Source: a virus
Length of the DNA stretch: 60,180 nt
Direction: 5' to 3' (one strand)
Virus record (IMG/VR): IMGVR_UViG_3300031965_000029
Location: 1 to 60,180 of that record
Below are positions 7,880 through 60,180 of the stretch, piece after piece (the stretch's first letter is position 1; the number at the start of each line of letters is the position of its first letter). Below the pieces are notes generated by a model. That model searched no databases. It was not told where the DNA came from and saw only the letters and a program-made list of their open reading frames with translations. The position numbers were made by a program, and so were the translations under genes.

Positions 7880-8596
7880 ATGAACGCATATCAGTATCTT
7901 GGAGGCTGGGAAGCGCAGCCCCGTAAGGCCGAGGAAAAATACGGCACCCCCGATGGTCGTGTTGTGATTATCGGAAAATACGAAGTTACCGTGCCTAATG
8001 ACACGGCAGCCGACGTGACGTTTCGCGCCCCTGAGAAAGGGTGGGACCAAAAAGACCCGCGTCAGGCAATCCCTGGCATGGAAGTCATCGACGGCGAGGT
8101 CCGAATCCCAATTGAAGGGCTCGTCCCTGTGATTTTGGAGCGCATGGAGCCGTTTGAAGTGGCGCGGGCGCTCTGGCAAGACGATGGCGTCCGCTGGGAG
8201 TTTGTGTCCTGTCTGGCGACGCGGTACTCGGACGAGGGCGTAACCGATACTGACCGCCGGAAATGGCTCCATGCCGTAAAGTCCGCCGTCCATGACAAGG
8301 CGTTGGATGATCTGGCCAGTGTGATGAACAAGCTGGAATACGCGGTATCCAAACAATCGTTTTTCTACCACGAAGTAAACCGCATCAATGACATGCTGCG
8401 CGACATGAACTGTTTGGCGCGTGACGGTTCCGTGATGCAGCTACGCCACGATACGGCGGATCGTGAGTTTGATGTCGGCAAGAAGTTCTGGAACGAAGCC
8501 CGCGAATACTGGCGGAAAGAGGTGCTGGGCCGGTTCCCCGCTCCTGATGCGCCGGTCACTGAAACGGTTGCGGCCGTGTTTGATGGGGAGGAATAA
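7880..8596 (+). CDS. hypothetical protein (238 aa)
   Basis: ORF track; GAGGGAG SD. Confidence 0.65.
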   Translation: MNAYQYLGGWEAQPRKAEEKYGTPDGRVVIIGKYEVTVPNDTAADVTFRAPEKGWDQKDPRQAIPGMEVIDGEVRIPIEGLVPVILERMEPFEVARALWQDDGVRWEFVSCLATRYSDEGVTDTDRRKWLHAVKSAVHDKALDDLASVMNKLEYAVSKQSFFYHEVNRINDMLRDMNCLARDGSVMQLRHDTADREFDVGKKFWNEAREYWRKEVLGRFPAPDAPVTETVAAVFDGEE

Positions 8597-8599
8597 CAG

Positions 8600-9103
8600 A
8601 TGCTCATAAAAATCCCATTCCTAAGCTGGACGGATAAGGCCGCGCTGGAAATCGAAGTCAGTGACGACTGCGAGGCACGTTGGCATCTAAAATCCGCGCT
8701 TGAGATTGCCGTTAAGCAACGCGCGAACCTGGAAGGCGCGAACCTGTATGGAGCGGACCTGCGAGGCGCGAACCTGGAAGGCGCGAACCTGTATGGAGCG
8801 GACCTGCGAGGCGCGGACCTGGAAGGCGCGAACCTGTATGGAGCGGACCTGGAAGGCATCAAGCTAATCGGCAAAACCCCGATTATCCAAATCGCGCCAA
8901 TCGGTTCCGATGGCGGCTGTTTACTGGCATATCGAACAGATCAAGGTGTTTACATGCAGCGGGGCTGTTTCTTCGGAATCCGCGATAAATTTGCGGCGGC
9001 GGTCGAGAAAAAACATGGCGATAACCAGCATGGCGTAGTTTACCGCTCCGCTCTGGTTATGATCGACGCATGGGCCAAGGGGAGTATTGATGATGACAGA
9101 TAA
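8600..9103 (+). CDS. Pentapeptide-repeat protein
   Basis: [45 protein letters not shown] (9 consecutive pentapeptides), encoded by a near-duplicated 45-nt DNA unit. Confidence 0.85.
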
Positions 9104-10478: not shown

Positions 10479-10735
10479 CAGATAAAGACGACGGTGGATC
10501 AGCGTTCCCATTGCAATATGACCCATATATTGACCATCCCGCGCATGGCCGCGTGCATCGTACCAGCGTTGGTGAGAACGTACAGTCCGGGATGAGCCTA
10601 CGCGACTGGTTCGCTGGTCAGGCGTTGGCGGGGTTTATGGCGTCATATCCTCCAAACGAAAAAATAGATGCCGCCGTAGCCGCGATGTGGTCTTACGAAA
10701 TCGCAGACGCCATGATCGCGGATCGCGCGAAATGA
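10475..10735 (+). CDS. hypothetical protein (86 aa)
   Basis: ORF track; ATGA coupling at both ends. Confidence 0.6.
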   Translation: MTDKDDGGSAFPLQYDPYIDHPAHGRVHRTSVGENVQSGMSLRDWFAGQALAGFMASYPPNEKIDAAVAAMWSYEIADAMIADRAK

Positions 10736-11022
10736 CCACCCTAGCAGCCGTTCGCTCCGCCGTGGCCTTGGAATTTAATGTCTCCGAGGCCGACCTCAGA
10801 GGACTGTCGCGGCGTGCCGATATTGTCAGGGCGCGGCATGTCGCCATGTATCTGGCCCGATCCGAGACCGGCGCATCGTTTCCGAGAATCGCACGGGCAC
10901 TGGCCCGCGTAAACCATACCAGTGTCATCCACGGCATCAAGGCCACTGAAATCCGCATGGAGCGCGATCCTGCGCTGGTCCTGCGCGTTGAGAAACTGAG
11001 GGCGCAGTTACGGTATTCATAA
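10732..11022 (+). CDS. DnaA C-terminal (domain IV)-like HTH protein
   Basis: SRRADIVRARHVAMYLARSETGASFPRIARALARVNHTSVIHGIKATE resembles the DnaA-box-binding domain. ATG 10732 overlaps the upstream stop. Confidence 0.65.
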   Translation: MTTLAAVRSAVALEFNVSEADLRGLSRRADIVRARHVAMYLARSETGASFPRIARALARVNHTSVIHGIKATEIRMERDPALVLRVEKLRAQLRYS

Positions 11023-11663: not shown

Positions 11664-11704
11664 CGCCCGCGCCGAAGCCGAAATAAAAACCACGGGAGAC
11701 TGAG

Positions 11705-13012
11705 ATGAAAAAATTACATTTAACGCCAGAGCGCCAGAGGACAATCGACCAAGCCCATAAAGATTGGCGCCGGGTCGGATATTCAACGGAACCGGCCAAT
11801 TTTGAACTGGCCGCCCGCGCCATCGAAAATTTATATACCCGGATCGGGCGTGCTCGTCCGTATTTTGTGCGGCTGCCGTCGCCGATGGCTGCGGAACTTT
11901 ACATCAACCTGCTCGTTAAAGCTTGGCCGGAGATGAAGGACCAGCTTCCGGACCAGCTTTGGGACCAGCTTCGGGACCAGCTTGGGGACCAGCTTGGGCG
12001 CCAGCTTGGGGGCCAGCTTGGGGGCCAGCTTGGGGACCAGCTTGGGGGCCAGCTTCGGGGCCAGCTTTGGGACCAGCTTTGGGACCAGCTTGGGGACCAG
12101 CTTTGGGGCCAGCTTGGGGACCAGCTTCGGGACCAGCTTCGGGACCAGCTTGGGGACCAGCTTCGGGGCCAGCTTGGGGGCCAGCTTGGGGGCCAGCTTG
12201 GGGACCAGCTTCGGGACCAGCTTTGGGGCCAGCTTGGGGACCAGCTTGGGGACCAGCTTGGGGACCAGCTTTGGGACCAGCTTCCGGACCAGCTTTGGGA
12301 CCAGCTTCGGGACCAGCTTGGGGACCAGCTTCGGGACCAGCTTTGGGGCCAGCTTGGGGACCAGCAATTATGCTTTACGGGTACGTGGAATTATGGGTCA
12401 TGGGACGCCGGATATTGGGGTTTTTACGAAACTGGCAGACGCCTCGGCGCCGCTTACGATGACAAGTCCGAAGCCGCCCTTTTCGATCACTGCGAGATCG
12501 TTAAATCTTGCGGGTTCGTTTATCCGTTTGAAAAATTTTGCATTATCACGGATAGGCCAGAGATCATCAAAATTGATGATGCATCTGTTCTACACTGCGA
12601 AACAGGTCCGGCTGTTTGTTACCGCGACGGCTATTCGCTATTTTCATGGCGCGGGGTCCGTATCCCCGGTGAATGGATCGAGGACAAGGCTTCTCTGACG
12701 CCGGAGATCGCGCTACAATGGGAAAACATTGAACAGCGCCGTGCCGCATGTGAGATTCTGGGGTGGGCAAACATCCTGTCCCGGCTTGATGCAAAAACCG
12801 TCGATAAGGACGATGACCCTATGGTTGGAGAACTTATCGAGGTCACGCTTCCCGACAGTGGCCGCGAAAAGTTTCTGCGTGTTTTGTGCGGAACTGGCCG
12901 TGAGTTCGCGCTGCCGGTGCCACCTGAAATGACTACGGCGCTCCAGGCTAATGCTTGGACTTATGGATTTGACGACGTAACTGAATTTATTAAACCGGAG
13001 GTAAGAACATGA
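11705..13012 (+). CDS. Tetrapeptide-repeat protein, 35 x [DGR]QL[WRGP], with a DUF6745-like C-terminal domain
   Basis: 78-aa N-terminus, then the in-frame 12-nt array, then CIITDRPEIIKIDDASVLHCETGPAVCYRDGYSLFSWRGVRIP...IEQRRAACEILGW, which resembles the remembered DUF6745 family. GGGAG SD. Confidence 0.6.
   Translation: MKKLHLTPERQRTIDQAHKDWRRVGYSTEPANFELAARAIENLYTRIGRARPYFVRLPSPMAAELYINLLVKAWPEMKDQLPDQLWDQLRDQLGDQLGRQLGGQLGGQLGDQLGGQLRGQLWDQLWDQLGDQLWGQLGDQLRDQLRDQLGDQLRGQLGGQLGGQLGDQLRDQLWGQLGDQLGDQLGDQLWDQLPDQLWDQLRDQLGDQLRDQLWGQLGDQQLCFTGTWNYGSWDAGYWGFYETGRRLGAAYDDKSEAALFDHCEIVKSCGFVYPFEKFCIITDRPEIIKIDDASVLHCETGPAVCYRDGYSLFSWRGVRIPGEWIEDKASLTPEIALQWENIEQRRAACEILGWANILSRLDAKTVDKDDDPMVGELIEVTLPDSGREKFLRVLCGTGREFALPVPPEMTTALQANAWTYGFDDVTEFIKPEVRT
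11939..12358 (+). repeat. 35 phase-locked 12-nt tandem repeats (consensus GACCAGCTTGGG) inside the CDS
   Basis: Read directly. CCAGCTT is the invariant core. Variation is confined to unit positions 1-2 (GA/GG/CG) and positions 8-9 of the trailing codon (TGG/CGG/GGG/CCG). Confidence 0.95.
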
Positions 13013-13356: not shown

Positions 13357-13382
13357 TCGCGCGCACTCAGACACGTAACCGA

Positions 13383-13418
13383 CGCGGCCCCGTTTAACGA
13401 TGGGGCCGCGTTTCTATT
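13383..13418 (+). terminator. Rho-independent terminator between convergent operons
   Basis: Perfect 9-bp stem CGCGGCCCC / GGGGCCGCG with a 10-nt loop, followed by TTTCTATTT. Confidence 0.75.
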
Positions 13419-16230: not shown

Positions 16231-16458
16231 TCAGTCCGTCTCGGTTGTAGATGGTTCCAGAACGGGGATTTCACCCCAAAGAACGTCGTCCAATTCGTTG
16301 AGACGCTTGGCAGCTTTATTGTAGTAACCAACGACACGATCATTTTTTTCGCGCAGAATATCGATCATGTCGGCAGCTTCATTCAAGGTCTTGCGTTGCG
16401 AATACAACGCAGACGTTTCTACAGCAGCCATACTTCTCAGTCGTTCAACAATATCCAT
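16231..16458 (-). CDS. hypothetical protein (75 aa), translationally coupled to the Fic gene
   Basis: ATG 16458 shares one base with the Fic stop (TGATG); GGGAGGAAG SD. Confidence 0.6.
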   Translation of the reverse strand: MDIVERLRSMAAVETSALYSQRKTLNEAADMIDILREKNDRVVGYYNKAAKRLNELDDVLWGEIPVLEPSTTETD

Positions 16459-16955
16459 CACTTCCTCCCGTCGCTGTTATCCAGCGTCTGATAATAAAAC
16501 GTATGCAGGAACCCCAGCGGCACGTTCTCAGGGCCGCCCATCATCCAGAGCCACAGCGCACGACCGGAACGGCCATTACCATCCATGAATGGATGCAGCG
16601 TTTCATAGAGGCAGTGGATTTCCCACGGTGTCATCCCGGCGTTGTTGACGTTCCAAAGAATTTCCCTCAGACGATGAACGACTTCGTTACCACCCAACGG
16701 CGGCGTATGCTTCCCGACTCGGCAGTTCATTCCGAGTTTATCACGCAACGGTTTTCCGGGGGCGACGACGGCAACAAATTCAGTCAGCGTCAGAACCGTG
16801 ATCTGCGTCCGCGACAACAGACGTTCATGCGCCGCGATTTCCTGCGGCGTCGGTTCGCGCAGGATGCCCTCGATACGGTTGCTCTCACGGACGAACGAGC
16901 GTAGCCCCTCCGTCGTGGCGTATTCGTCGAACAGTCTATCTAACTCGTCACTCAT
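16458..16955 (-). CDS. Fic-domain protein (putative AMP-transferase)
   Basis: Intact Fic motif HPFMDGNGRSGR. N-terminal SNRIEG fits the [ST]xxxE[GN] inhibitory-helix motif. ATG 16955 overlaps the helicase stop. Confidence 0.85.
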   Translation of the reverse strand: MSDELDRLFDEYATTEGLRSFVRESNRIEGILREPTPQEIAAHERLLSRTQITVLTLTEFVAVVAPGKPLRDKLGMNCRVGKHTPPLGGNEVVHRLREILWNVNNAGMTPWEIHCLYETLHPFMDGNGRSGRALWLWMMGGPENVPLGFLHTFYYQTLDNSDGRK

Positions 16956-19441
16956 CACACTCTCCCTTCCTTCTTCGCGTTTCGTTTCTGCATCTTGGCG
17001 ACGAAGACGTGCGCCGCCCAAGACGGTTTCTTATTCGTCTTCTTCGCCATCCTCAACAGGTATTCAAGTTCCTCGACGTTTCCGCCCAGCCGATTCGCTA
17101 AATCGTAGGCTGCCTCGACGGGCTGCATCCCAGCACCAAGACTTGCCTTAAACGCATCGACGTGTTGGCGCTTAAATACGGCTGGATCAATCTGCTGCAA
17201 CTCGCCTTCGACGTAATCCACGGCGCGGCCTTCGACGACAAACGGGGTGCCGCAGAACCGGCACACCGAACCGCCCGGTCGTTGGGCGGCGTAACAGCCC
17301 GGACAGAGTTTAAGCTTTACCTGTGAGGCTGCACCTTTTTTCTGACGCCCCTCACGACCTTCAAGCGACCACACCCGTTCCTCGTCGGGTAGGCCGTGGC
17401 GCTGCACGTTCCCGGCGTGGTCCAGAATGATCGCGGTCTTCCCCGGAATGTACCGCAGCGCCCGTCCACAGAATTGAAGCCACAGCGTCAGCGATTGCGT
17501 CGGTCTGCCGTCGATGACGCACTCCACGGTTGGAACATCGACTCCTTCGGAAAATAAATCTACGTTTGTCAAGACCTTTATGTTACCGGCGCGAAAATTC
17601 TCCATCGCCGATTCGCGTTCGTTAGTCGGGGTGTCGCCGTCAACATGAACCGCAACGATCCCGGCGGCGCAGAACTGAGCCGCAATATGTTTTGAATGTT
17701 CAACCGAAACCGCCCGCAGGATGGCGCGTTTTCCGGCGGCATGTTTCTGATAATGCCGGATCATGTCTCCGGTCACAGTGGGCTTGTCCATTTCGGCGGC
17801 GAGTTCGGCTTGAACATAATCGCCCATGCGGGTATGGGCCTTTCTGAGATCAGGTGCGCCCGGTGCGTACAGTGTGTATGGGGACAAATAATTATTGTCG
17901 ATCAGCCAGCGCACAGATGGCCCCTGAATGATGCGCTGGAAATATTTACCAAGCCCCTTACCATCCGTCCGTTCCGGTGTCGCCGTCAGCCCGATCAGCC
18001 ATGCGTCTGGGAATGCCTGTATCAGTGCTTCCCATGTCTTCGCCGCCAAGTGATGGGCTTCATCAATAACGATCAGCTTCGGCCTCCGCAGCCTGTCCCG
18101 TCGCCGTGATAGCGTCTGTATCGAACCGATCTGTATCGGATGGATGGAGTCTGGAGCAAACCCTGGAGCGATTATGCCGTGGGGGATGCCTCCGAAATTA
18201 AATGTGTTCGTACTCTGCGAAAGCAACTCACGTCTATGTACGCAAAAGAGCGATGGCGTCCCGCGTTCTGCTGCGGTGCCGAGCATGTTGGCCGTCATCA
18301 CGGTATTGTGAGTTACCGTGAAATCACCGAGAAGAAATAAACGATCTGGCCCCTCTAACTCAAACCCAAAATATTCTCCCAATCCGACTGGTTCAGCCTT
18401 TAACCCAGTTACCAGATGGTCTTTTTTTTGTGCGCGCAGTGGAATATTTAAATGGCGCTTACGCAAAAACGGAATCTCTGAAAAATCTCCGGTGATATAG
18501 CACCGATAATAGGTTCCAGTTGCATTGGTATTGGTGCATGTTTTTTGCGTTTCTTTTTTATATGCAGCAAAACCAAGTGATCGCGCAAGAAACAAAAGAT
18601 CATCAAAGAGTTTCTCTACCTTAAATGTGACTTCAAAGCCACCCTTAGACAGATACCCATCAGAATCCAACATTCCTGCTAGTAGAATTTGGCGGTTTGC
18701 GCGTGATGCTGTCTTATAAATATGTGGTATGTGTTTATTTCCCAACAGATTGTGCGATCGCATCAACGCCTGCAAAGATGAAGAACGTGGTTTATCCATT
18801 TGACTAACCGTATTAACTCCAATGCAATTTCCGCGTTGCTCACGAAAACTAATCCGCATACCGATACGTTCTGCATGTCCGCATATCCATTCCACAATCT
18901 CTTTATCGCCAGTGGTTATTTCTGTTGTCCTAGACGTTCCATCACCAAGCCAGAGGCCAAGAAAATATGGGTCTATAGGAAGATCGCATTCGCCTTGAAA
19001 ATTAATCGGAGCCCGCCATCCTTTGTGAACGTGCCGAAACCAAGTGTTAGTTTCATAAAAATCACGAACACAAATATTAACAATAGTTCCTTTGCGCGTG
19101 TCTCCGGCCTTCTCAGCAGTACGTTTTAAGCTGAGAATATGGGCATCGTTGACGATATAGGAATCGCCTTTGACAGGGGTAATCTTGAAAAGCGGACCAA
19201 CCCCTTTGGTGACTCCCTTCACAGTTCTTGGTGTGCTATCTGGCCCCATCACCAAGTCGCCGTTCCTGATTTCTTCCACGGGCACGATTTTCCCATCGGA
19301 CATCATCACGGGAGTTCCTTTTCCAAGGCACTTTCCCGACCCTGTCGGCGCAACAATACATTGAGCACGAATCCCGGCTTTCATACCTGATCGGACCTCG
19401 TTTATGATGTCGGCCTGAAATGGGTGCAGATTCACGGTCAT
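16955..19441 (-). CDS. SF2 DEAH-box DNA helicase with C-terminal zinc ribbon; intein-containing precursor
   Basis: Walker A APTGSGK / T is interrupted by 342 aa. DEAH box LIVIDEAHHL. Helicase C-domain QFCGRALR. CPGC...CRFC ribbon. Confidence 0.85.
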   Translation of the reverse strand: MTVNLHPFQADIINEVRSGMKAGIRAQCIVAPTGSGKCLGKGTPVMMSDGKIVPVEEIRNGDLVMGPDSTPRTVKGVTKGVGPLFKITPVKGDSYIVNDAHILSLKRTAEKAGDTRKGTIVNICVRDFYETNTWFRHVHKGWRAPINFQGECDLPIDPYFLGLWLGDGTSRTTEITTGDKEIVEWICGHAERIGMRISFREQRGNCIGVNTVSQMDKPRSSSLQALMRSHNLLGNKHIPHIYKTASRANRQILLAGMLDSDGYLSKGGFEVTFKVEKLFDDLLFLARSLGFAAYKKETQKTCTNTNATGTYYRCYITGDFSEIPFLRKRHLNIPLRAQKKDHLVTGLKAEPVGLGEYFGFELEGPDRLFLLGDFTVTHNTVMTANMLGTAAERGTPSLFCVHRRELLSQSTNTFNFGGIPHGIIAPGFAPDSIHPIQIGSIQTLSRRRDRLRRPKLIVIDEAHHLAAKTWEALIQAFPDAWLIGLTATPERTDGKGLGKYFQRIIQGPSVRWLIDNNYLSPYTLYAPGAPDLRKAHTRMGDYVQAELAAEMDKPTVTGDMIRHYQKHAAGKRAILRAVSVEHSKHIAAQFCAAGIVAVHVDGDTPTNERESAMENFRAGNIKVLTNVDLFSEGVDVPTVECVIDGRPTQSLTLWLQFCGRALRYIPGKTAIILDHAGNVQRHGLPDEERVWSLEGREGRQKKGAASQVKLKLCPGCYAAQRPGGSVCRFCGTPFVVEGRAVDYVEGELQQIDPAVFKRQHVDAFKASLGAGMQPVEAAYDLANRLGGNVEELEYLLRMAKKTNKKPSWAAHVFVAKMQKRNAKKEGRV
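18305..19330 (-). mobile_element. Class-1 intein with LAGLIDADG homing-endonuclease domain, inserted in the helicase P-loop
   Basis: Starts CLGKGTPVMMSDG directly after GSGK and ends GDFTVTHN before +1 Thr. Block B reads GDSYIVNDAH. LAGLIDADG motifs are FLGLWLGDGTS and LLAGMLDSDGYL. Boundaries were checked at the codon level. Confidence 0.85.
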
Positions 19442-22710: not shown

Positions 22711-22787
22711 CTGAGCGTAGATCAGTCTGGTAGATCGCCTGCCTTGGGTGCAGGAGGCCGTTGGTTCAAATCCAGCCGCTCAGACCA
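22711..22787 (+). tRNA. tRNA-Pro (anticodon UGG), CCA encoded
   Basis: Hand-folded cloverleaf. Acceptor CTGAGCG/CGCTCAG with the C1-G72 pair typical of bacterial tRNA-Pro. D arm GATC-AGTCTGGTA-GATC. Anticodon arm CCTGC-CTTGGGT-GCAGG. T arm GTTGG-TTCAAAT-CCAGC. Confidence 0.85.
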
Positions 22788-34194: not shown

Positions 34195-34725
34195 TCACAA
34201 TTCGTTCCTCTTATATCCTAACGGAACACAAGTTCCCTTTCCACTATTCATTCTTAGGTCTTGATTTTCTTTGAGATATTTCGCCAAGTCGCGCCGTCCG
34301 ATTCGGCTATACGCCTGAGCGCCTTGACCGTCATGTTCGCAATGGAATCCTAAGAAAACAGCCAGTTTCAATGCCGCATCATCTTCGGGGATCACAACCG
34401 TCGCCAGTTCACGTCTGGTCTCCATGATTTCATCCAGCAGATCACGTAGAATCCGCGCCGTTGCAATGGGGTGTTTGCGGACTTCATCGGACAGCGCCAT
34501 CCAGACAAACCCAATCGAATTGATGCCTGAACCCATGACGCCACCAAGCCCAACTAAACGGCCATCAATCAACCCGGCGCGCCGCCAGAACGAGCCATCG
34601 AAACTGGACTTTATTTCACGGTGAATATTAACCCCGGCATGGGTCAGTTCGCGCTGATGCTCATGCCGCAAGATTCGTGCCATCTGCCCACAGTGCCAAG
34701 GTTTACCTTCGACGATCTCAATCAT
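34195..34725 (-). CDS. hypothetical protein, possible GNAT-fold acetyltransferase
   Basis: 176 aa; GRLVGLGGVMG...FVWMALSDEVRKHP...LKLAVFLGF loosely fits the GNAT pattern. Weak. Confidence 0.3.
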   Translation of the reverse strand: MIEIVEGKPWHCGQMARILRHEHQRELTHAGVNIHREIKSSFDGSFWRRAGLIDGRLVGLGGVMGSGINSIGFVWMALSDEVRKHPIATARILRDLLDEIMETRRELATVVIPEDDAALKLAVFLGFHCEHDGQGAQAYSRIGRRDLAKYLKENQDLRMNSGKGTCVPLGYKRNEL

Positions 34726-37700
34726 TCTCCACCACCGCCTTGAACCTTTAGCTGCGGCGTATCGCCGGGGAAAATCTCTGGGATAATCGCGGATACGTTC
34801 AACGGCAACGGCAACGTCTGTTGGATCGCCACCTGCCCCTTACGGTCATACCCGCCCGGTAGTGGCACCCTCAGATCGCCTGTATAGAGCGGTAGCACCG
34901 AACTCCCAAATGGAGCCTCGCTCTCAATGGGGGCGTCCTTCATGTCGTTCCATTCTGGGGCAACCCGTATCGGACTCTGTGCCGCGCCATCAGGCTGGTT
35001 CGCCCCGATCTGGAACCCGGCGCTGGCCTGTACCCGAACCGTTGCGGCTGGAAGTTTCTTACGCTGGCCTTGGACCGTTGGCGAATCTCCGGCGTTCAGA
35101 TAGACGCTCTGCATCTGCGCCGTGAACGGAAGCCCGACCACGACCGAAGTGCTGGCCTGTGGTAACGTGATCGTGCCTGTTGCTGGCACCACCACGGGAT
35201 CAATAACCACACCATCTGCCAGCCCCGTCACCGTGGCCCCGATCAAATGATTCAACCCGCTCACGGTGGAAACAGGTTCCGTCATCGTCCACTGCCCCTC
35301 AATCTGCGGAGCCGGAGTTGTCGTATTCGGGATCAAGTCGATAATCGGAACCGTGATGTTGGCATCGACTTCTGTGCCGCTGGTGTAGGCCGTGATCGTG
35401 GCAACACCGCCCCCGGTCCTGATGATGTCTCCGACATTCCCCGCCGCGAACACCGAGGCCGAAGCCGTGAACGTCGCCGTATTGTCTAACGTCACCGAAA
35501 TCGTGGCACCGGAGCCGCCCGCCGATCCAGCCGGATCATCGATGACCACCACCGGATTGACGTACCCGGTTCCAGCCACGGAAACCGCGACACCCGTAAT
35601 CACACCGCCCGCGATGGTCAGCGTCAGGGCGGCATTTATGCCGGGGCCGGAGCCGTTATCATCCACCACGGTCGCCGTAGTGGCCGAACTGTAGCCGGTG
35701 CCTCCGGCATCAACCGTGGCCGTATCGATGGCCCCAAGCCCTGTTGCGCTCGATACCGTCAACGTCGCCGCTGGTTCCGTCTGGGTCAGTGCTAGGCCGC
35801 AATCCACGGCCCAGACATCATCCAAGGTATCCCACTGCCGATCATTCATTAACTCAACGGTGTATGCCTCGTTGTCTCCAATCGGCCTCCAGCACGCGAA
35901 ATATGTAAAATCTGTGCCACCATGATGCGACTCCGGGGGCTGCACAACGGTGCAAACAGATTTAAAATATCCCAATGTATCGTGGCGCGTCCAGCCCGCG
36001 ACTTCATCGGACTTGACAAACGTCATGCTGAGAAGAATTCCATCCTCTCGAACCGCCCACACCAGTTTGTAGGGTTCCTCGGTCCATGCGTTTTCGCGCA
36101 TGAAAAACCCGTTGAACAGGTGCGAAGAATTGAGCGTCAAATCGCGCCCGGTATAGATGTTTGAGTAAATTTCGTAGCTAAGGTTACGATAAATCGAACC
36201 GCTGGCTTGGACGTAGATGATGTCGTTTTCCACCCGGAGCGGTGGCACATGGACGTAGACGCCATTGAACGCCTGCTGCTGCGCCTGTTGGCCGCTTGGC
36301 GTAATTGATTGCGGCGTCAGCGACGAACCGCCGTTGCCCGTCAGTTGCCATGCCGATGCACCCGTCATCACGACCAGCCCACCAGGCATGGGGATCATCC
36401 ACTGGATACCGTTGACCTGCAACGACCACGGAGAACCGATGATGGCGTCGGAATCAATGCTTGGTATCCGACTGTCGAAATTACTGAACGCGCTGGGCTG
36501 CGACATGAAATACGTGTCTGGTTCATTGATCGTTGACGCATAGACGCGGCGCTGCTGAAAATACGTCACCGCGCCGGGATAGGTGCCGCTCTGGGCACCA
36601 ATATCAAGAACCGCCGTGGCACCCACACCGTCACCGCCGATGGTGACAGTATCGGTGGCGGCGTAACCGCTGCCCTCGGTGACGAGGATGAACGCCACCA
36701 CACCGCCGCTGACGATGATCGGGTCAAGTTCTGCGCCCGACCCAGTTGACGTGTTGATTGTTACCGTGGCCGTGGTGTAGCCGCTGCCCTGATTAACCGT
36801 TGATGCGCCAAGGATGCGCCCCGGAGAGAACGGGTTCTTCGCCAACGGAGGAACCTGAGTGAAATCAGCGGTGATGTTGGAATCGATGAACTGTGCACCA
36901 AATGCATACCCAGCAAACCCGAACAACGCCCCAACGGGCGGATTCGTGTTGAACTGTGGCGTGGCCTTGTAAACCATGTACTGCGAAATGCCGGATTGCG
37001 GAGTCCAGGTCAACGTGATGTTTCCAGCCGTGGCCGCGATATTAACCGCGCTCCCGATGAACGCGGTATCCGATGCTGCGCTCTCCGATCCGTCATCGGG
37101 GCTTACCGACGTGATCTGATAGGCGTAGTTGGTCGATCCAGCAGAACTCGCGGACCCGCTCAGGGCCGTAGGTGCCGTCACAGATGGCGTCGTATCCAAG
37201 GCGTCGAATTGCCAATCCGTATTCGATACCCGCGTCAGATCGTAGGGAATATATTCAGTTCCAGTATCCTGGTTGACGCAGCAAATCGACAGGGTATTTC
37301 TGGATTGGGCGAATTTTAAAAATTCTAGGTCTTGTTCGGAATACGGTGACGATACCGTGTAAATCCGCGCTACCGTGCCGGAACCAGAATAGGTTCCGAA
37401 TCCTGTGGTATCGATGTTGTTCCCATAGACATCGTTCAGTTCAAATGAAGTCGGCCCTGCATTAGCCACGACATAAACCTGTCCGTTGACTTCAGTCATG
37501 CCGGAAACACCGGCGACATAAACCCAATCCCCGTCGCTGAACGCGCCGACCGAAGCCGTTGTCAGCGTGAATGTCGCCCCGGTGCCAGACCCGGTACTGG
37601 AGTCCTGCGCCGCTGGATTCGACGGAACAACCGAGTAAACACCTGGGGTATCGACGGTTACGGCATTTGGCCCAAGGATGGCCTGCTGGAACGTCGCCCC

Positions 37701-38639
37701 GGCTCCTGCCCCGGAAGTCGAACCCTGCGTAAACGTCCCGCCGCTGGGGTTGGCGGTAAACACGCCTGCATTGGTGATGGCAAACGTATCTACGCCCATG
37801 ACGACGGTAAGTTCAGCACCCGTAAGACCTCCGCCAGTAACGGGTTCCGCCGCTATGGATGTTGGGTTGGCGGTATAAGAACCAGCCACCGTCAGAGAAT
37901 CAACGGACGAAATCGTTCCGCCAGCCTCGATGGTCACTTCGGCCTGAAACTTCGTTCCCGTCCCCGTAGTCCCTGTGACCGTCGCCGTTCCCGGTGTTCC
38001 ACCGGTTCCAGCATCAGAAACAGTTGGAACCGCAGAAACCTTGGTCGTCGAAACCGTCATAACCGGAGTCGTCGTCGTCGTGCCGCCGGTCAGATTGATT
38101 GTATCCGCAGGGACGTATCCGCTGCCCGAAGCGTTGAGCAGAAGGCTTACCAGCTTCGTGTTGGTCACGGCCAGCACGGCTTGCGTCAGATACGTTCCGC
38201 CCGCGACGGTAATAAGATCGCCGGGAGCATACGTCGTCACCACCCCCGTAACGATGGGAGATGCCGCCGTGACGCCGCTGCCGCTGGACGAAACAACACC
38301 GGGGTCAGCGTTCGTGATCCCCGAAATACTCAGCGCCGGTTCGGTGACGTATTCACCAGCCGAAATAACCCTCATATAGAGGTTGCCAAACTCCAGAACG
38401 AAACCTTCGCTGGCAGAGTATTGAAACGTGATGATCCGAGGCGCATATGCGCGGCCAGTCTGTTTCGAGAACCCGACGAACTTGGTCCCCGCCCGCGATG
38501 ATAGGCCACCCTGATAACGGATGAACATGTTACGCGCCGTTGACGCCGCCACGCTCATGCGGGCAAGGTCGGTGCGCCCATAGAGGGTAGGCGATACCTC
38601 TCCTAGCGTGAACGCATTTTGTATTTTAGGAACCGACAT
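34722..38639 (-). CDS. Tail nozzle protein (T7 gp12-like tubular protein B) with large insertions (1305 aa)
   Basis: Directly follows the gp11-like genes. N-terminal GGLSSRAGTKFVGF...FQYSASEGFVLEFG and C-terminal QTLPLPLNVSAIIPEI recall gp12-type proteins. Multiple G[ST]GY repeat modules. Confidence 0.5.
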   Translation of the reverse strand: MSVPKIQNAFTLGEVSPTLYGRTDLARMSVAASTARNMFIRYQGGLSSRAGTKFVGFSKQTGRAYAPRIITFQYSASEGFVLEFGNLYMRVISAGEYVTEPALSISGITNADPGVVSSSGSGVTAASPIVTGVVTTYAPGDLITVAGGTYLTQAVLAVTNTKLVSLLLNASGSGYVPADTINLTGGTTTTTPVMTVSTTKVSAVPTVSDAGTGGTPGTATVTGTTGTGTKFQAEVTIEAGGTISSVDSLTVAGSYTANPTSIAAEPVTGGGLTGAELTVVMGVDTFAITNAGVFTANPSGGTFTQGSTSGAGAGATFQQAILGPNAVTVDTPGVYSVVPSNPAAQDSSTGSGTGATFTLTTASVGAFSDGDWVYVAGVSGMTEVNGQVYVVANAGPTSFELNDVYGNNIDTTGFGTYSGSGTVARIYTVSSPYSEQDLEFLKFAQSRNTLSICCVNQDTGTEYIPYDLTRVSNTDWQFDALDTTPSVTAPTALSGSASSAGSTNYAYQITSVSPDDGSESAASDTAFIGSAVNIAATAGNITLTWTPQSGISQYMVYKATPQFNTNPPVGALFGFAGYAFGAQFIDSNITADFTQVPPLAKNPFSPGRILGASTVNQGSGYTTATVTINTSTGSGAELDPIIVSGGVVAFILVTEGSGYAATDTVTIGGDGVGATAVLDIGAQSGTYPGAVTYFQQRRVYASTINEPDTYFMSQPSAFSNFDSRIPSIDSDAIIGSPWSLQVNGIQWMIPMPGGLVVMTGASAWQLTGNGGSSLTPQSITPSGQQAQQQAFNGVYVHVPPLRVENDIIYVQASGSIYRNLSYEIYSNIYTGRDLTLNSSHLFNGFFMRENAWTEEPYKLVWAVREDGILLSMTFVKSDEVAGWTRHDTLGYFKSVCTVVQPPESHHGGTDFTYFACWRPIGDNEAYTVELMNDRQWDTLDDVWAVDCGLALTQTEPAATLTVSSATGLGAIDTATVDAGGTGYSSATTATVVDDNGSGPGINAALTLTIAGGVITGVAVSVAGTGYVNPVVVIDDPAGSAGGSGATISVTLDNTATFTASASVFAAGNVGDIIRTGGGVATITAYTSGTEVDANITVPIIDLIPNTTTPAPQIEGQWTMTEPVSTVSGLNHLIGATVTGLADGVVIDPVVVPATGTITLPQASTSVVVGLPFTAQMQSVYLNAGDSPTVQGQRKKLPAATVRVQASAGFQIGANQPDGAAQSPIRVAPEWNDMKDAPIESEAPFGSSVLPLYTGDLRVPLPGGYDRKGQVAIQQTLPLPLNVSAIIPEIFPGDTPQLKVQGGGGE

Positions 38640-38655: not shown

Positions 38656-39558
38656 TTAGAATGCCGACGAGTTTCCGCCGCCACCCCATCCTATATTATC
38701 CCACGCGCAGGACCAATCCCCCATATTCTGGCCGAACGACCCATAAAAACCAGCCCCACCTGATTTACGCATCTTCATCCAATCCACGGCAAGATCAGAC
38801 GAATGCCAGCCCTCTTGGCCGTCCGTGATCCGCGCCGACTTGATCTTCTCCTGAGCGATGGCGATGTTGTGTTGGCGCATCGTCATACCCATGCGGGGGT
38901 CTTTATCAGACCACAGCGGTAGGGCAATCATAGACGCCATGTAAGCCACCATCGCGGCGCGAAACTGAGAGTCCCATTGGTTAGGATAATAAGCCTTGTA
39001 GCTGTAAATTCCTATGGCGTCCTTGACGTTGGTGCAGATGATGGTGCGCCCAATCGGGGTGCTTCCCGGCGTTTCGTTCCCGGCCCCGGCTTCGATGAAA
39101 TTCACGTCACTGGTTACGAGAAACCGCGACGGGATCAAGCGTAGCCCGGCATACGGACTCTGCCCCAGATTTGCCATCAATGATGCGCTGCTGTCGTCGG
39201 GCACGATATTACCCTCTGGAACCGAAGCCGACACATACGGGTTCCACGGAATATACCGGATTCTGGCGCAGTCCGTTGGGTAGGCGTAGGCGTAAATCCA
39301 CGGTGCCGGAACGTCGGTCGAAACCAACGGGTCCGTGGTCTGGCCGGTGGCATCACCGATCAGTTGCAGCGGAATCTGTTTGCGGGTCGTGTTCCACGGC
39401 GCGGCGCGGAACAGTTGATCCAAGCAGGTATAGTATTGGCGGAGGCATACCTGCGCTTCCTTGGTTCCTGATTCAATATCGTCCAACGTGAAGTTCAAAC
39501 CGCACGCATCAATGGCTTCTCCAGCGACGGCTGTGGGGGTGTAATAATCAATACTCAT
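38656..39558 (-). CDS. T7 gp11-like tail adaptor paralog 3 (300 aa)
   Basis: Shares with its two upstream neighbours the pattern AxxAIxxxG...W.F/W.T...PW.YAYxYPTD...TNVxxA...W...F. Confidence 0.45.
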   Translation of the reverse strand: MSIDYYTPTAVAGEAIDACGLNFTLDDIESGTKEAQVCLRQYYTCLDQLFRAAPWNTTRKQIPLQLIGDATGQTTDPLVSTDVPAPWIYAYAYPTDCARIRYIPWNPYVSASVPEGNIVPDDSSASLMANLGQSPYAGLRLIPSRFLVTSDVNFIEAGAGNETPGSTPIGRTIICTNVKDAIGIYSYKAYYPNQWDSQFRAAMVAYMASMIALPLWSDKDPRMGMTMRQHNIAIAQEKIKSARITDGQEGWHSSDLAVDWMKMRKSGGAGFYGSFGQNMGDWSCAWDNIGWGGGGNSSAF

Positions 39559-40670
39559 CAGCCCTGCTCCCCTTGCGCCGCAGCGTTGGCTACGGACTCA
39601 TCCTGAGCCGCCGATTGCAGTGCATTCATGCCGACAAGAACAGGCACCAAACGCCGCCCCAAGGCCGCTGCAAGGGCTTCCGTGAAGTCAGGGGGCCATT
39701 GCGTCGGGTCCGTCACCTGACCGGCGTATGTCAGCATGGCGTCGGCCACGTTGCAGGCGATGACACGGCGCGATTTTGTCGTCGTCGTAAACGTCGCCGT
39801 ATTGAACGACGCAGCGACACCGGAACCGGAAGTCGAACCCTGCGTAAATGTCGTTGAGGTTGCCGTGAAAACGCCAGCATAAACGATGGTGATGGACTGG
39901 ATGCCCATCGACACCGATAACTGCGCTCCAGACAAGGACGCCCCCGTTACGGGTTCTGCCGCCAGTGTTGTCGGATTTACGGTATAAACGCCGCCCGTGG
40001 CGATGGCGTCAACGGATGAAATCGCGCCCGCTCCAGAAATAGTAACCGTCGCCGTGAACTTGGTTCCTGTTCCAGTTGTTCCAGTGACGGTCGCGCTGCC
40101 CGGTGTGCCGCCGGTTCCAGCCGCAGCGATGGTGGCTGAAACGACCTTCGTCGTCATGGCCTGCAAAACAGGCTGTGCGGTTTGGGTGCCGCCCGTCGGA
40201 TAGATGAAATCTCCGGGCACATACCCAGACGTTCCTGGGCTGTTGATCGCCAACGTAGCCAGCGTCGAAACCGTATCCAGCACGTTCGTAATCGTATACT
40301 GATTCGGCAACGGCGTCATATTGACGAGGAATCCGGTAGACGCCTTCAAGACACGGGCCTTGAGGCAATCCGTCGGGTACTCATAGGCATACAGCCACGG
40401 CAACGGCGGGTTTGTTGCAGCATCCCATGACGAACCACCGGGCCAGTATCCTCCTACCGGAGCGCTACGGAGCAGTGTGGCCACCACGTTACGTTGGCAG
40501 AACTGCCACTCCCCGGTACGCATCAAATCATCGCGGGTCTGTCCGTAGATGTTCAGTGCAGCCTGAGACGCCTCGGAGCCATCATAGAGGTTCGAGATAC
40601 GGAGTCGGTAGCCGATCCGCGTCAATGCCAGATTCACGATGTCGGCAACGGTCGTGATGGTGGTCGCCAT
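39558..40670 (-). CDS. T7 gp11-like tail adaptor paralog 2 with a 150-aa inserted module (370 aa)
   Basis: IVNLALTRIG...GEWQFCQRN...PWLYAYEYPTDC. Residues 146-293 are homologous to residues 171-320 of the nozzle protein. Confidence 0.45.
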   Translation of the reverse strand: MATTITTVADIVNLALTRIGYRLRISNLYDGSEASQAALNIYGQTRDDLMRTGEWQFCQRNVVATLLRSAPVGGYWPGGSSWDAATNPPLPWLYAYEYPTDCLKARVLKASTGFLVNMTPLPNQYTITNVLDTVSTLATLAINSPGTSGYVPGDFIYPTGGTQTAQPVLQAMTTKVVSATIAAAGTGGTPGSATVTGTTGTGTKFTATVTISGAGAISSVDAIATGGVYTVNPTTLAAEPVTGASLSGAQLSVSMGIQSITIVYAGVFTATSTTFTQGSTSGSGVAASFNTATFTTTTKSRRVIACNVADAMLTYAGQVTDPTQWPPDFTEALAAALGRRLVPVLVGMNALQSAAQDESVANAAAQGEQG

Positions 40671-56213: not shown

Positions 56214-56289
56214 TGGAGCCCCCGGCAGGAATCGAACCCGCGACTTCCTGATTACAAATCAGGCGCTCTTCCAACTAAGCTACGAGGGC
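56214..56289 (-). tRNA. tRNA-Thr (anticodon UGU), CCA encoded
   Basis: Reverse complement folds as GCCCTCG-TA-GCTT-AGTTGGAA-GAGC-G-CCTGA-TTTGTAA-TCAGG-AAGTC-GCGGG-TTCGATT-CCTGC-CGGGGGC-T-CCA. Confidence 0.85.
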
Positions 56290-56782: not shown

Positions 56783-59374
56783 TCACCACCCTCCATTCCC
56801 TGTTGGCGTCTCCATTTCCCGAAACGGGTTGTAATCGTCGGAGACGGCCTTGTTCCCGTAACGACGCACCTTATCCGTCTTCGGCGCCACCGGGGCCGCG
56901 AACGTCAGAATCGCCGCATCCATCTCGTCGGGGCTGTACCCGATCTTCCTCTTGACATTATCCTTCGGCTCGATCAGAACCCGGTCCTTACGGAAAATAT
57001 ATGTGGTCTGCGTCAGCGCCGCCGCCAAACGATCATCGTTCGGGATGGCCCCGCCGCGCTTAATCCAGTCCACCATCTCGAACATCATCTCGGTGCGCTT
57101 ATTAACGTACCGTTCCGTTTTCAGAGCCGTCTCGTTGAAATGTATCCCCACCGGGGCGTGGCCCAGCACCTTCAACTGGTCGATCCATCCCGCACCAAAC
57201 CCGCCGGTGCTATCCACAAACGTCGCATCGGCCTTGAACTCGGTCCATTCCCGCGCCACCAGTGACGCACCTTGGATGCTGTCGATATTCCTGTATTTCG
57301 AGAACGGGTACATCTGGAGCCCACGACGCCGCGAGATAATCGAGAAATCCAGCCCATCACGGGCGACATCAACACCCAATATCCGCGCCGTATTCACCAA
57401 CTCAAATTCCCGGTACATCCGGTTCATCGAGGCCCTGACTTCATCCATCGAGATCAGGGAGTTGAAATTCTGTGACGGGAACTGTCCAAGGATGTTCACC
57501 ATGACATACGGATCGTCGCGGCCATACTGTTCGATCTGCTGTCTAGCATATTCCACGGGAATACGCGGCGTCCGCAACGGGTCATCTGGATCAGCCGTGA
57601 TCCTGGCGACATGCCACAAATCCTTAGCCACCGTACAGGCCCGATACAGTGGACCGTCCAGTTTCAACGGGTTCCCCGCCATCACGATATGGGCTTCCTT
57701 CGGAGACGACGCGAAAATGTTCTCGCACACCGGCAGCACCGAGTTCGGGTAATCGCCGGTTTCATCCAGCACCCACATGATGTAATCCGTATGCGGGCCG
57801 CGCAGGGCACTACCAATCGCGGTTGGATCAGCATCCTTCGCCCATGTCCGGGCCTCCAGCTTCCACGTCGCCGGGGACTGACGATACGCTATATACGTCT
57901 TCGTCATGTCGAACAGTTTCTTCAATAACTCCGACTTCTCGTAGAGACGAGCCAGTTCCGTCCACAGCCCCGATGCAAGGTTGTCCTTCGTAATCGAGGT
58001 TACGCCGATCCAGCAATTTGGCCGCGTCAACAGGAAGTTCCAGCACAGAACGGCGAGCGTCCAGCTATTATGGGTAACAATAAAATCGTTGGTCAGGTAG
58101 CAGTGCGACGGATGCTCAACCGTAATACACATCGCGTCTGAGGGATCAACAGCCGTGATGTTATCAATATAACGCGTTAAATATCGTTCCTGGGGATAAC
58201 TCCACCGCACTGCTTTACGGGTGACATAAAACGGATTAAATGGCAGCGTCACCGTGACACGATGGCACGGCAGGCCAGCAATTTTTTCGCGGGTCTGAGG
58301 GTGACGGTAAAACGGCATCTTGATCTTACGCCGTCTCGCTACACCACCAAGCGACCGAACCAGCCATTCGACATCTTCAACCAATCGTTCCGAGGTCACG
58401 TCAAACGACATGCTGCCATCATCGGCAATTGATCCATCGGTGTCCATGAGCCCGCGCAGCACGTCCATTCTGACCTGCTCCGGCGCCCGCTTATATTCAT
58501 CGGGGACGAATCGGTACGGACTACCAAGATGCACCAAGTCCATGGCGCGCAACTTAGCCACCAGACCGTACATGGTTACAGTCTTTCCGCTGGGCGATCT
58601 GCGGACCTTAAAACCACGGCGCTGAATCTCGGCATCAATCTCACGGTCTTGCCACGATCCCGTCGCATTTAGGCGGCAGCCGTCGCCAAGCCATACACCA
58701 AGAACATACGGGTCCAGAGGCAGATCACGGTAGGGATAAAATACCACACCCTGACGCGGTATCTCGAACTGACGGCGGTTTCCGTCTTTCAGCTTGTTGC
58801 GCTCAATGATTTGTTCCGTGTTCAGAACCGAATAACCGTCCCTGGGCGTTGGTGTATAACCACGCTCGATACAGCGTTTTTCGCCAACCGCGCTCCAGGT
58901 TCCGTTCTCATATGCCTTGAAGTGTCTCCGCTCCGTTCTCCCCCTAACCTTCCAGAGATGTTCGCCACAGGCCAGCGTCGAGGTGCCGTCGCAAAACTCC
59001 ACCCTATACATCGGTCTCACACCACGGGGATGGACCGCGACAACCCGCGTCGGCATCCCGTCATCGGCAAATACCCGGTCTCCGACACAGATATCTCCGA
59101 ACCGGCGTTTTCCGTCCGGGGTTTCGATGACCAAATCTACGGGCTGGGCTTTACCCGGCCCAGCACATGCCGCCATCGCGATCCTCGGAGAGGTCCGAAA
59201 TACCCGGAAAACCTCCATCTGCCACGCATCAGGTTCGGTCTGCCACAGATCACGGCACATATCCGATGGATCAAGATACCAGCGACGGAATATCTCGATC
59301 TGCTGCGCCTGCACCGCCGCTGGGTCAGCAGCGCGCGCCATTCGGGCCGGTTTTTTAGCGGGTTTCTTCGTCAT
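56783..59374 (-). CDS. terL: Terminase large subunit, intein-containing precursor
   Basis: Walker A CAGPGK / S is interrupted by 361 aa. Walker B DYIMWVLDETG. A nuclease-type C-terminal half follows. Confidence 0.85.
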   Translation of the reverse strand: MTKKPAKKPARMARAADPAAVQAQQIEIFRRWYLDPSDMCRDLWQTEPDAWQMEVFRVFRTSPRIAMAACAGPGKAQPVDLVIETPDGKRRFGDICVGDRVFADDGMPTRVVAVHPRGVRPMYRVEFCDGTSTLACGEHLWKVRGRTERRHFKAYENGTWSAVGEKRCIERGYTPTPRDGYSVLNTEQIIERNKLKDGNRRQFEIPRQGVVFYPYRDLPLDPYVLGVWLGDGCRLNATGSWQDREIDAEIQRRGFKVRRSPSGKTVTMYGLVAKLRAMDLVHLGSPYRFVPDEYKRAPEQVRMDVLRGLMDTDGSIADDGSMSFDVTSERLVEDVEWLVRSLGGVARRRKIKMPFYRHPQTREKIAGLPCHRVTVTLPFNPFYVTRKAVRWSYPQERYLTRYIDNITAVDPSDAMCITVEHPSHCYLTNDFIVTHNSWTLAVLCWNFLLTRPNCWIGVTSITKDNLASGLWTELARLYEKSELLKKLFDMTKTYIAYRQSPATWKLEARTWAKDADPTAIGSALRGPHTDYIMWVLDETGDYPNSVLPVCENIFASSPKEAHIVMAGNPLKLDGPLYRACTVAKDLWHVARITADPDDPLRTPRIPVEYARQQIEQYGRDDPYVMVNILGQFPSQNFNSLISMDEVRASMNRMYREFELVNTARILGVDVARDGLDFSIISRRRGLQMYPFSKYRNIDSIQGASLVAREWTEFKADATFVDSTGGFGAGWIDQLKVLGHAPVGIHFNETALKTERYVNKRTEMMFEMVDWIKRGGAIPNDDRLAAALTQTTYIFRKDRVLIEPKDNVKRKIGYSPDEMDAAILTFAAPVAPKTDKVRRYGNKAVSDDYNPFREMETPTGNGGW
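58067..59149 (-). mobile_element. Intein with LAGLIDADG homing-endonuclease domain and class-3 hallmarks (Ala1, Trp-B12, Cys-F4, Thr-G5) in the TerL P-loop
   Basis: Starts AQPVDLVIETPDG after GPGK and ends NDFIVTHN before +1 Ser. Block B GTSTLACGEHLW. Block F DAMCITVE. LAGLIDADG motifs VLGVWLGDGCR and LRGLMDTDGSI. Boundaries were checked at the codon level. Confidence 0.8.
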
Positions 59375-60061: not shown

Positions 60062-60180
60062 ATACCGATTTTATACGGGTTCCGAAATTTAGGCGCCACG
60101 CGGGAGAGGGTAGGTACTCCTATACGAAGACGGGGGGGCGGTCCCCCCAAGGTGGGGGTGCGGGCGCGCGGTGGGGTAAG
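60062..60180. repeat. Right copy of the exact 119-bp end duplication
   Basis: Identical to bases 1-119. Confidence 0.95.

Follow-up and report, generated by a model that had tools for sequence, protein, structure and literature searches.

A tandem array of 35 tetrapeptides interrupts a 435-amino-acid (aa) protein encoded in the viral DNA analysed here, the 60,180-nucleotide (nt) IMG/VR record IMGVR_UViG_3300031965_000029 (positions 1 to 60,180; hereafter the window). The array lies between an N-terminal domain and a C-terminal domain of the DUF6745 family, and comparable arrays occupy the same site in many relatives of the protein. The units of any one array are homogenised at the DNA level, that is, they undergo concerted evolution. 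Every array nevertheless keeps a mixture of residues at exactly two positions of its unit: a hypervariable position, where W, R and G predominate, and a binary one, where D alternates with G, A or S. Arrays grow and shrink in 12-nt steps of one tetrapeptide, with the reading frame always kept, and the array gene forms a conserved pair with the gene for a 115-aa His-rich beta protein in phage replication modules. The interpretation we favour, which we put forward as probable but well short of certain, is that the array is a real, translated and selection-maintained module of a non-structural phage protein that belongs to the replication/recombination block.

Fixed codons and two variable residues

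Tandem Repeats Finder reported a period of 12 with 35.7 copies and 90% matches at positions 11938-12365. Codon-phased parsing resolved this region into exactly 35 in-frame 12-nt units at 11939-12358 on the plus strand, just as an initial annotation of the window had proposed. The core that it described as invariant, CCAGCTT (unit nt 3-9), is indeed constant in all 35 units, as is nt 12. Variation had been said to be limited to two positions. Nt 2 (A in 24 units, G in 11) and nt 10 (G in 17, C in 10 and T in 8) are the main variable bases, but rare changes in the same two codons also occur at nt 1 (one C) and nt 11 (two C). The eight resulting unit types are DQLG and GQLG (8 each), DQLW and DQLR (7 each), DQLP (2), and RQLG, GQLR and GQLW (1 each). 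A two-unit pattern matched the genome 35 times, where 0.01 matches would be expected by chance, and every match fell within the array. Two further claims also held: there is no stop codon across the array in any of the six frames and, because of this, the ORF list includes three spurious open reading frames (ORFs) that are not genes (Table 1).

Not one of the array's 140 third codon positions varies, even though in the phage's large genes only 18% of Leu residues are encoded by CTT and 34% of Asp residues by GAC. All 29 differences of individual units from the consensus are nonsynonymous. Thirty-seven other arrays behaved similarly, each having its own set of fixed codons (CTT, CTC, TTG, GTC, GCC and others across genomes), with variability concentrated in the first one or two bases of the codon for the hypervariable residue ('x') and in the second base of the D/A/G codon. 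When 32 arrays comprising 822 units were compared with their own consensus, we counted 4 synonymous and 762 nonsynonymous differences, whereas random single-base changes would be expected to give about 188 synonymous ones. The corresponding binomial probability (p=6e-86) overstates the number of independent events, because units are copied by duplication, but the direction of the deficit is unambiguous despite this. The near-absence of synonymous variation between units, which the initial annotation did not mention, appears to be undescribed.

The residues at the two variable positions were examined in 149 arrays. At the hypervariable position G (27%) and R (26%) are commonest, ahead of W (20%), D (7%), Y (4%) and E (3%); at the second, D (33%) leads, followed by S (19%), A (17%) and G (16%). 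From the first to the fourth position of the unit, the entropy has medians of 1.85, 1.0, 0.21 and 0.23 bits; the entropy of the hypervariable position never falls below 1.3 bits, and not one of the 149 arrays is homogeneous. From one genome to another the unit changes in its DNA but keeps the fixed pair [Q/S/A/N][L/V/T/A] and a period of exactly 4. Since the DNA around the variable bases also differs between array types, a context-specific mutational hotspot is unlikely. Neighbouring units are slightly more different from each other than random (lag-1 z=-0.44), and unit order is otherwise near random. Composition per unit is fairly constant (0.48 acidic, 0.32 basic, 0.27 aromatic and 0.47 Gly residues), with a net charge of -0.16 per unit and 74% of arrays net negative. 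These patterns may be read as the outcome of two processes, in which slippage or unequal recombination would homogenise the units and selection would keep the mixture of residues at the two positions. Targeted mutation is a less likely alternative to selection for this heterogeneity.

Could the array instead be a neutral low-complexity linker, a disordered and functionless by-product of slippage in a tolerant loop, with its variation due to drift? The near-random order of units and the uniform composition along arrays are what such a linker would show, and the spread in unit number (9-65), the many family members that lack an array and the low confidence of the AlphaFold2 prediction described below would also be in keeping with it. 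However, drift predicts that roughly a quarter of the differences should be synonymous, and only 4 of 766 were. Moreover, the same two residue positions vary in lineages with unrelated unit DNA, an identical motif is found in actinobacterial and proteobacterial phages, degenerate inserts retain the period of 4, and heterogeneity is never lost. We therefore regard a neutral linker as unlikely, and a module maintained by selection as the better account of these data.

Distribution and turnover of arrays in the DUF6745 family

The proposal that the array links a 78-aa N-terminus to a DUF6745-like C-terminus was upheld by Pfam, which matched profile positions 19-197 of 206 with a score of 103.3 bits against a gathering score of 27 (E=1.4e-29). 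At least 1351 homologs of the whole protein were found, the best full-length one being 58% identical, and almost all of the top 120 (240-516 aa) contained an x-[D/G/A/S]-Q-[L/V] array directly after an N-terminal domain of about 80 aa. Because a search with the full protein is biased by the repeat, it was repeated with the C-domain only, related loci being located with C-domain motifs or a seven-sequence C-domain alignment. Arrays were present in about 45 of the 98 loci fetched in this way, with the cores xxQL, xxQV, xxSV, xAAT, xNAV, xSAV and [A/D]NLx. In about 50 of the 98, the encoded protein measured some 290 aa, with a short linker in place of an array between the two domains. An exhaustive phmmer search with the C-domain (E<=0.001) yielded at least 7,674 representatives of clusters formed at 50% identity, and among the best 150 of these, 43 had a clean array of at least 8 units. 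Possession of a period-4 array at this site is thus a trait of the family, found in about 30-45% of DUF6745 relatives, and both counts agree with the statement in the initial annotation that these proteins often bear xQ[LV]W-type arrays.

In 149 proteins the array starts at a median residue of 80 and contains between 9 and 65 units. Other relatives have non-repeat or degenerate inserts at the array site; in long inserts without a clean repeat, autocorrelation was confined to lags 4 and 8 (mean z of 2.0 and 1.3, respectively), and to judge from their sequences they look like degenerate arrays. In a neighbour-joining tree of the C-domain, core types follow the clades, and array-less members occur partly in clusters and partly dispersed, from which it follows that the array is old and has been lost or gained several times. 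The family is found in phages of Proteobacteria, Actinobacteria, Cyanobacteria and other phyla. Gp38 of the Mycobacterium prophage prophiGD102-1 (QSM05137.1) has about 50 units of the identical [D/G]QL[W/R/G] motif, and the order of N-domain, insert and C-domain seen in the window protein recurs both in gp38 and in gp174 of the Microcystis phage Ma-LMM01, the latter being itself array-less. One 880-aa relative (P0380) has, fused to its DUF6745 C-domain on the N-terminal side, a long run of repeats of another sort, each about 30 aa in length (ALQFVPEEFRTPELCLAAV...), so that this domain is found in combination with more than one kind of repeat module.

Unit number differs even between near-identical genomes. 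Two contigs from different metagenomes, L094 and L096, can be aligned over 15,474 bp with 99.92% identity, and their sole difference is one 12-nt gap in the array, corresponding to the tandem duplication of one unit. Unit number thus does change within the family, by steps of the size that slippage would produce. The further suggestion that the array might behave as a contingency locus did not hold in the classical on/off sense: 12 nt is a multiple of 3 and lies inside an ORF with all frames open, so slippage cannot switch the gene off. Like contingency loci, the array is a perfect tandem repeat within a gene, and in the relatives L094 and L096 unit number differs between near-identical genomes; it differs from such loci in that slippage alters length, not expression state, and that the units are heterogeneous at the protein level.

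A sister phage, whose array flanks are 80-93% identical and whose primase protein is 93% identical to those of the window, is split into two contigs exactly at the array; one contig retains at least 22 units and its counterpart about 10. The units of this phage are mostly GQLx, not DQLx, and include a GGA/GGC synonymous variant. Since the arrays differ in composition and the flanks are similar, arrays turn over faster than flanks. Phage records contained no near match to the window at the DNA level. Exact junction patterns retrieved only the broken sister contig, and none was found in metagenome contigs. The exact array protein of the window was absent from the records, and the contig encoding a 97%-identical partner protein ends before the array.

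Such breaks are common. Two other assemblies of the window phage, 100% identical to it over 4 kb, both stop inside the array, so that the window's own assembly is the sole basis for the count of 35. Contigs L020, L021, L023, L032, L034, L036, L063 and others likewise end inside the array, a few hundred bases upstream of the C-domain. Arrays systematically break short-read metagenome assemblies, and the family is therefore probably under-represented and truncated in metagenomic catalogues. These broken contigs, together with the split sister phage, might be taken to mean that assembly has produced an artefact, be it the array itself or just its length and the order of its units. We find this hardly credible, given that comparable arrays occur in hundreds of independent assemblies, in the isolate prophage prophiGD102-1 and in chromosome-scale records. 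Furthermore, every k-mer of at least 59 nt in the window array is unique, so that a long-k-mer assembler can resolve it and the count of 35 is plausible and in principle resolvable. The window also begins and ends with a perfect direct repeat of 119 nt (1-119 = 60062-60180), which represents either terminal redundancy or a circular-assembly overlap and, in the latter case, may reflect assembly at k=119. The unique genome length is 60,061 nt, and the window is therefore probably a complete phage genome; an ENA contig of the same phage is only 99 nt short of this length.

One array in the family changes frame. In locus L003, from the chromosome of a Reyranella sp. metagenome-assembled genome (NZ_OZ257242.1), a single ORF reads the array upstream of position 8001 in two frames, PALQ/PARQ and then xSQL, and in the frame of its upstream part the conserved N-domain is no longer encoded. 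Such a frameshift inside the array reflects either an error of sequencing or a genuine slip that inactivates the gene.

Predicted structure and possible roles of the array

Residues 1-78 match 23 loci by tblastn, array-less ones among them, and no Pfam model matched this N-terminal domain, even at E<=10. The C-domain is distinguished by the conserved motifs DRP, RLHxExGP, YRDG, WHG, NxEQRRAACEI and CGTGRxFALPVPP. In a 92-sequence alignment, H297 and G317 are invariant and R284, D291, D308, G309, P321, N341, E343, R345 and C395 are at least 90% conserved; all of these are present in the window protein. The only PHROGs match was to a family of unknown function. PADLOC and NCBIfam searches gave no match, and comparison with PDB sequences gave low-complexity matches only. 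A match of the array to DUF2939 was rejected as compositional.

An AlphaFold2 model of the protein, computed from the 92-sequence alignment, had a predicted local distance difference test score (pLDDT) above 90 for residues 1-75 (90-98) and 225-430, and a predicted template modelling score (pTM) of 0.66. Within the array, for which the initial annotation had suggested a solenoid or fibrous spacer, it placed two helices, 83-156 and 164-218, joined at a Gly-rich patch (157-163), with pLDDT values of 52-68. Foldseek found no significant relative of the full model in the PDB (best E=1.8), and only other DUF6745 proteins in the viral library BFVD. From this model we infer that the two flanking domains would pack as one globular body. 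The array, for which the stretch between these two domains seems to be a permissive site, would then project from this body as an excursion of freely variable length, which we tentatively suggest is most likely a helix-turn-helix stalk or helical hairpin. The two variable positions would be solvent-exposed, and might present a patterned aromatic and charged surface to a host or phage target during DNA replication. The His-rich partner protein may serve as a metal-binding cofactor or enzyme subunit.

A number of observations weigh against a selected helical module of this kind, in addition to the non-independence of units mentioned above. The helical model of the array is a low-confidence one. 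The period of 4.0 residues misfits the heptad or hendecad periodicity of canonical coiled-coil packing, and Gly contributes about half a residue per unit; indeed, with this period and with about 0.47 Gly, 0.48 acidic and 0.32 basic residues per unit, the array has the character of neither a canonical coiled coil nor an ER/K single alpha-helix. The proposed packing of the N- and C-domains is drawn from the pTM and from array-less relatives, not from a map of predicted aligned error. Complementarity of the sort that a hairpin might display (W facing G, or W-W avoidance around a central turn) gave z values of about 0 across 47-83 arrays, and no residue, Gly included, was enriched at array centres. 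Since roughly half of the family members, or more, function in its absence, the array cannot be essential to the core activity. Finally, a literature search retrieved no experiment or paper addressing the family and no paper mentioning DUF6745, PF20530 or the repeat peptides, and a broader search, for phage tetrapeptide repeats in general, yielded nothing of use.

The unit also bears a likeness to pentapeptide repeats (PF00805; MfpA, Qnr), in that both combine a small residue, an amide or acidic residue, Leu or Val and a variable residue. If [A/D/G/S]-[Q/N]-[L/V]-x is regarded as A(D/N)LXX minus one residue, the array might form a related beta-solenoid, a rod that could mimic DNA. The residues correspond position by position to the pentapeptide consensus, including those of the [A/D]NLx arrays in locus L065; V and T are frequent at the fixed hydrophobic position, and arrays are mostly net negative. 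Moreover, pentapeptide-repeat proteins occur in phages, and the window phage itself has a true one, whose gene (8600-9103, plus strand; PF00805, 90.8 bits) precedes the array gene by about 3 kb and contains a 15/45-nt tandem repeat at 8721-8857. However, the array protein itself gave no match to the PF00805 hidden Markov model at E<=0.01, the period is 4 and not 5, and Asp would be unfavourable at the would-be inward-facing position. A solenoid would also hold the ends of the array tens of angstroms apart, yet array-less relatives join the same domains by a short linker, and AlphaFold2 predicts helices rather than the strands of a beta-helix. A beta-solenoid is thus quite improbable. The pentapeptide repeat at 8721-8857 is a second point at which an assembly of the window phage breaks, in this case that of Logan.

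The evolutionary signature invites comparison with transcription activator-like effectors (TALEs), in whose arrays the DNA of the units is near-identical, variability is concentrated in one or two codons per unit and unit number varies between alleles. The DUF6745 arrays share with the TAL effectors of Xanthomonas and Ralstonia both the DNA-homogenised units and the confinement of variability to a few codons. They differ in that the units are of 4 aa, not 33-35, in having no sequence or fold match in the PDB, and in that the array is an insert inside a globular protein. By analogy, the units could constitute a recognition code that reads a periodic polymer, with the hypervariable and binary residues as specificity positions. 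The replication/recombination context and the fast turnover of array patterns between related phages would suit such a code, as would the prevalence of W and R at the hypervariable position, since these are typical nucleic-acid contact residues. On the other hand, no sequence or fold similarity to known nucleic-acid-binding repeats was found, arrays are mildly negative, and a four-residue unit is very small for base-specific reading. We consider such a code distinctly improbable.

In its most explicit form the idea becomes one of a programmable recognition module, each four-residue unit of which would contact one element of a periodic target, such as one single-stranded nucleotide. Four residues of a helix rise by 6 angstroms, in agreement with the spacing of about 6-7 angstroms between such nucleotides, and W/R/G together with D/G/A would make up a two-letter specificity code that could be quickly rewritten by unit shuffling. 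Very improbable though we judge it, such a module would be the shortest-unit analogue of the TALE or pentatricopeptide repeat codes, used by thousands of phages together with a small metalloprotein partner, in replication or against host defence.

Targets of diversity-generating retroelements (DGRs) were considered separately. The arrays resemble them in being variable at few codons and in the binding-site residues found there (W, R, G, D, Y and S). They differ in that nt 5 of the unit, an A, is invariant, nt 10 varies between T, C and G, and the variation lies between the units of one array. A DGR target was rejected on the ground that the genome contains no template copy, all 35 matches to the pattern lying inside the array; not every ORF was searched for a reverse transcriptase.

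Variability signatures of this type have marked recognition surfaces before, as in the repeat-variable diresidues of TALEs and in DGR targets. If the parallel extends to the module that we favour here, the array would be a fast-evolving interaction module in phage-host conflict. The array gene is a new member of a catalogued family of undescribed function, and three features now provide handles on it: the cassette of DUF6745 and His-rich partner, the optional, fast-evolving array at a fixed site, and the signature of heterogeneity at two positions. Both the partner cassette and the fixed insertion site appear to be undescribed.

The partner gene and the genomic neighbourhood

The features of the array locus are collected in Table 1. 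The array gene is preceded by a likely ribosome-binding site, GGGAGA, read from the sequence at 11694-11699. It is followed by a partner gene that was not mentioned in the initial annotation and whose start overlaps the array-gene stop (ATGA), an arrangement that suggests translational coupling.

Table 1. Features of the array locus, with positions numbered along the window
Feature	Position	Strand	Remarks
Array gene, 435 aa	11705..13012	+	N-terminal domain, tetrapeptide array, DUF6745 domain; from ORF list and Pfam
N-terminal domain, 78 aa	11705..11938	+	Family consensus LTPEQ...W..IGLSTEPAD...SP (alignment)
Tetrapeptide array	11939..12358	+	35 units G[A/G]C CAG CTT [T/C/G]GG = [D/G/R]-Q-L-[W/R/G/P]
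Degenerate 36th unit, closing the array	12359..12370	+	GACCAGCAATTA; GAC CAG CAA TTA = DQQL
DUF6745 (PF20530) domain	12449..12976	+	Residues 249-424; Pfam match
Partner gene, 115 aa	13009..13356	+	His-rich, predicted all-beta; conserved neighbour
Intrinsic-terminator-like hairpin	13381..13412	+	14-bp stem with 9 G-C pairs; between partner and convergent primase gene
Spurious ORF, not a gene	11831-12367	-	ORF list
Spurious ORF, not a gene	11923-12462	+	ORF list
Spurious ORF, not a gene	11982-12698	+	ORF list

A relative of the partner was detected by tblastn in 91 of 99 related loci, on the same strand as the DUF6745 gene in 90. In 54 loci it lies directly downstream and in about 16 directly upstream, while in about 19 it follows at a distance of 0.2-1.7 kb, and it accompanies array-bearing and array-less DUF6745 genes alike. 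None of the other ORFs flanking the array gene in the window recurs among the related loci, where the next commonest neighbour cluster was present in only 17. The partner family comprises 921 homologs with the invariant motifs AQGD, HSETGHxH, HxRxxDTH and RRQRE..P.G, and the AlphaFold2 model of the partner is all-beta (pLDDT 84). The partner matched nothing in Pfam (even at E<=10), NCBIfam, PADLOC or the PDB sequences, and its model had no significant match among PDB folds (best E 0.42).

In other phages, the neighbours of the cassette include gp32, gp59, a late-transcription coactivator, ERF, DUF932, RepA, DNA polymerase and uracil-DNA glycosylase (UDG). In Ma-LMM01 the partner, gp175 (hhalign probability 98.9%), adjoins the DUF6745 gene for gp174, as in the window. 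Both were assigned by RNA-seq to middle-gene subclass B5, together with UDG, UvsW, UvsX and a RecD-like helicase (PMC5780444, supplementary file 4). In prophiGD102-1, unlike the window, the gene after gp38 is not the partner.

Within the window, the array gene is the second-to-last of a plus-strand block of small early genes (about 1.1-13.4 kb). It comes after a DnaA_C-like helix-turn-helix protein and faces a primase/VapE helicase, with RecE/RecT and a second helicase nearby. The structural genes are on the minus strand, from about 24 to 60 kb. Since the array gene lies at the end of the early/replication block, away from these genes, the association with virions that the initial annotation had raised is unlikely. 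The same surroundings, that is, a replication module with a DnaA_C-like protein and a primase close by, might point to a DNA-level role for the array, as origin iterons or some other protein-binding array within the gene; phage origins are sometimes intragenic. However, what relatives conserve is the period of the peptide, the reading frame and the place of the array in the protein, and not the DNA of the unit. In addition, up to 65 units and a 12-nt period would be atypical of iterons, and many relatives have the same neighbouring genes but no array. A role of this kind is extremely unlikely.

Other features of the window were noted in passing. The helix-turn-helix gene upstream of the array gene (10687-11022, plus strand) encodes 111 aa that are essentially the C-terminal helix-turn-helix domain of DnaA (PF08299, 72.5 bits), and its product could be a phage-encoded DnaA-box binder or competitor. 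A 187-aa ORF between the primase and helicase genes (16458-17021, minus strand) matches Fic/DOC weakly, with 28.5 bits where the cutoff is 24, and could encode a host-modifying enzyme. Two large minus-strand ORFs, 16955-19441 and 56783-59374, both have terminase-large-subunit matches in PHROGs; the former is mainly a DNA helicase (phrog_16, E=4.6e-97), and the latter also has helicase-loader and primase-like N-terminal matches. The window encodes tRNA-Pro(TGG) at 22711-22787 (plus strand) and tRNA-Thr(TGT) at 56214-56289 (minus strand). Lastly, a 49-nt direct repeat is present in three diverged copies (65-82% identity) at 37569-37737 and 39804-39852 on the minus strand, within the tail-protein genes 34722-38639 and 39558-40670.

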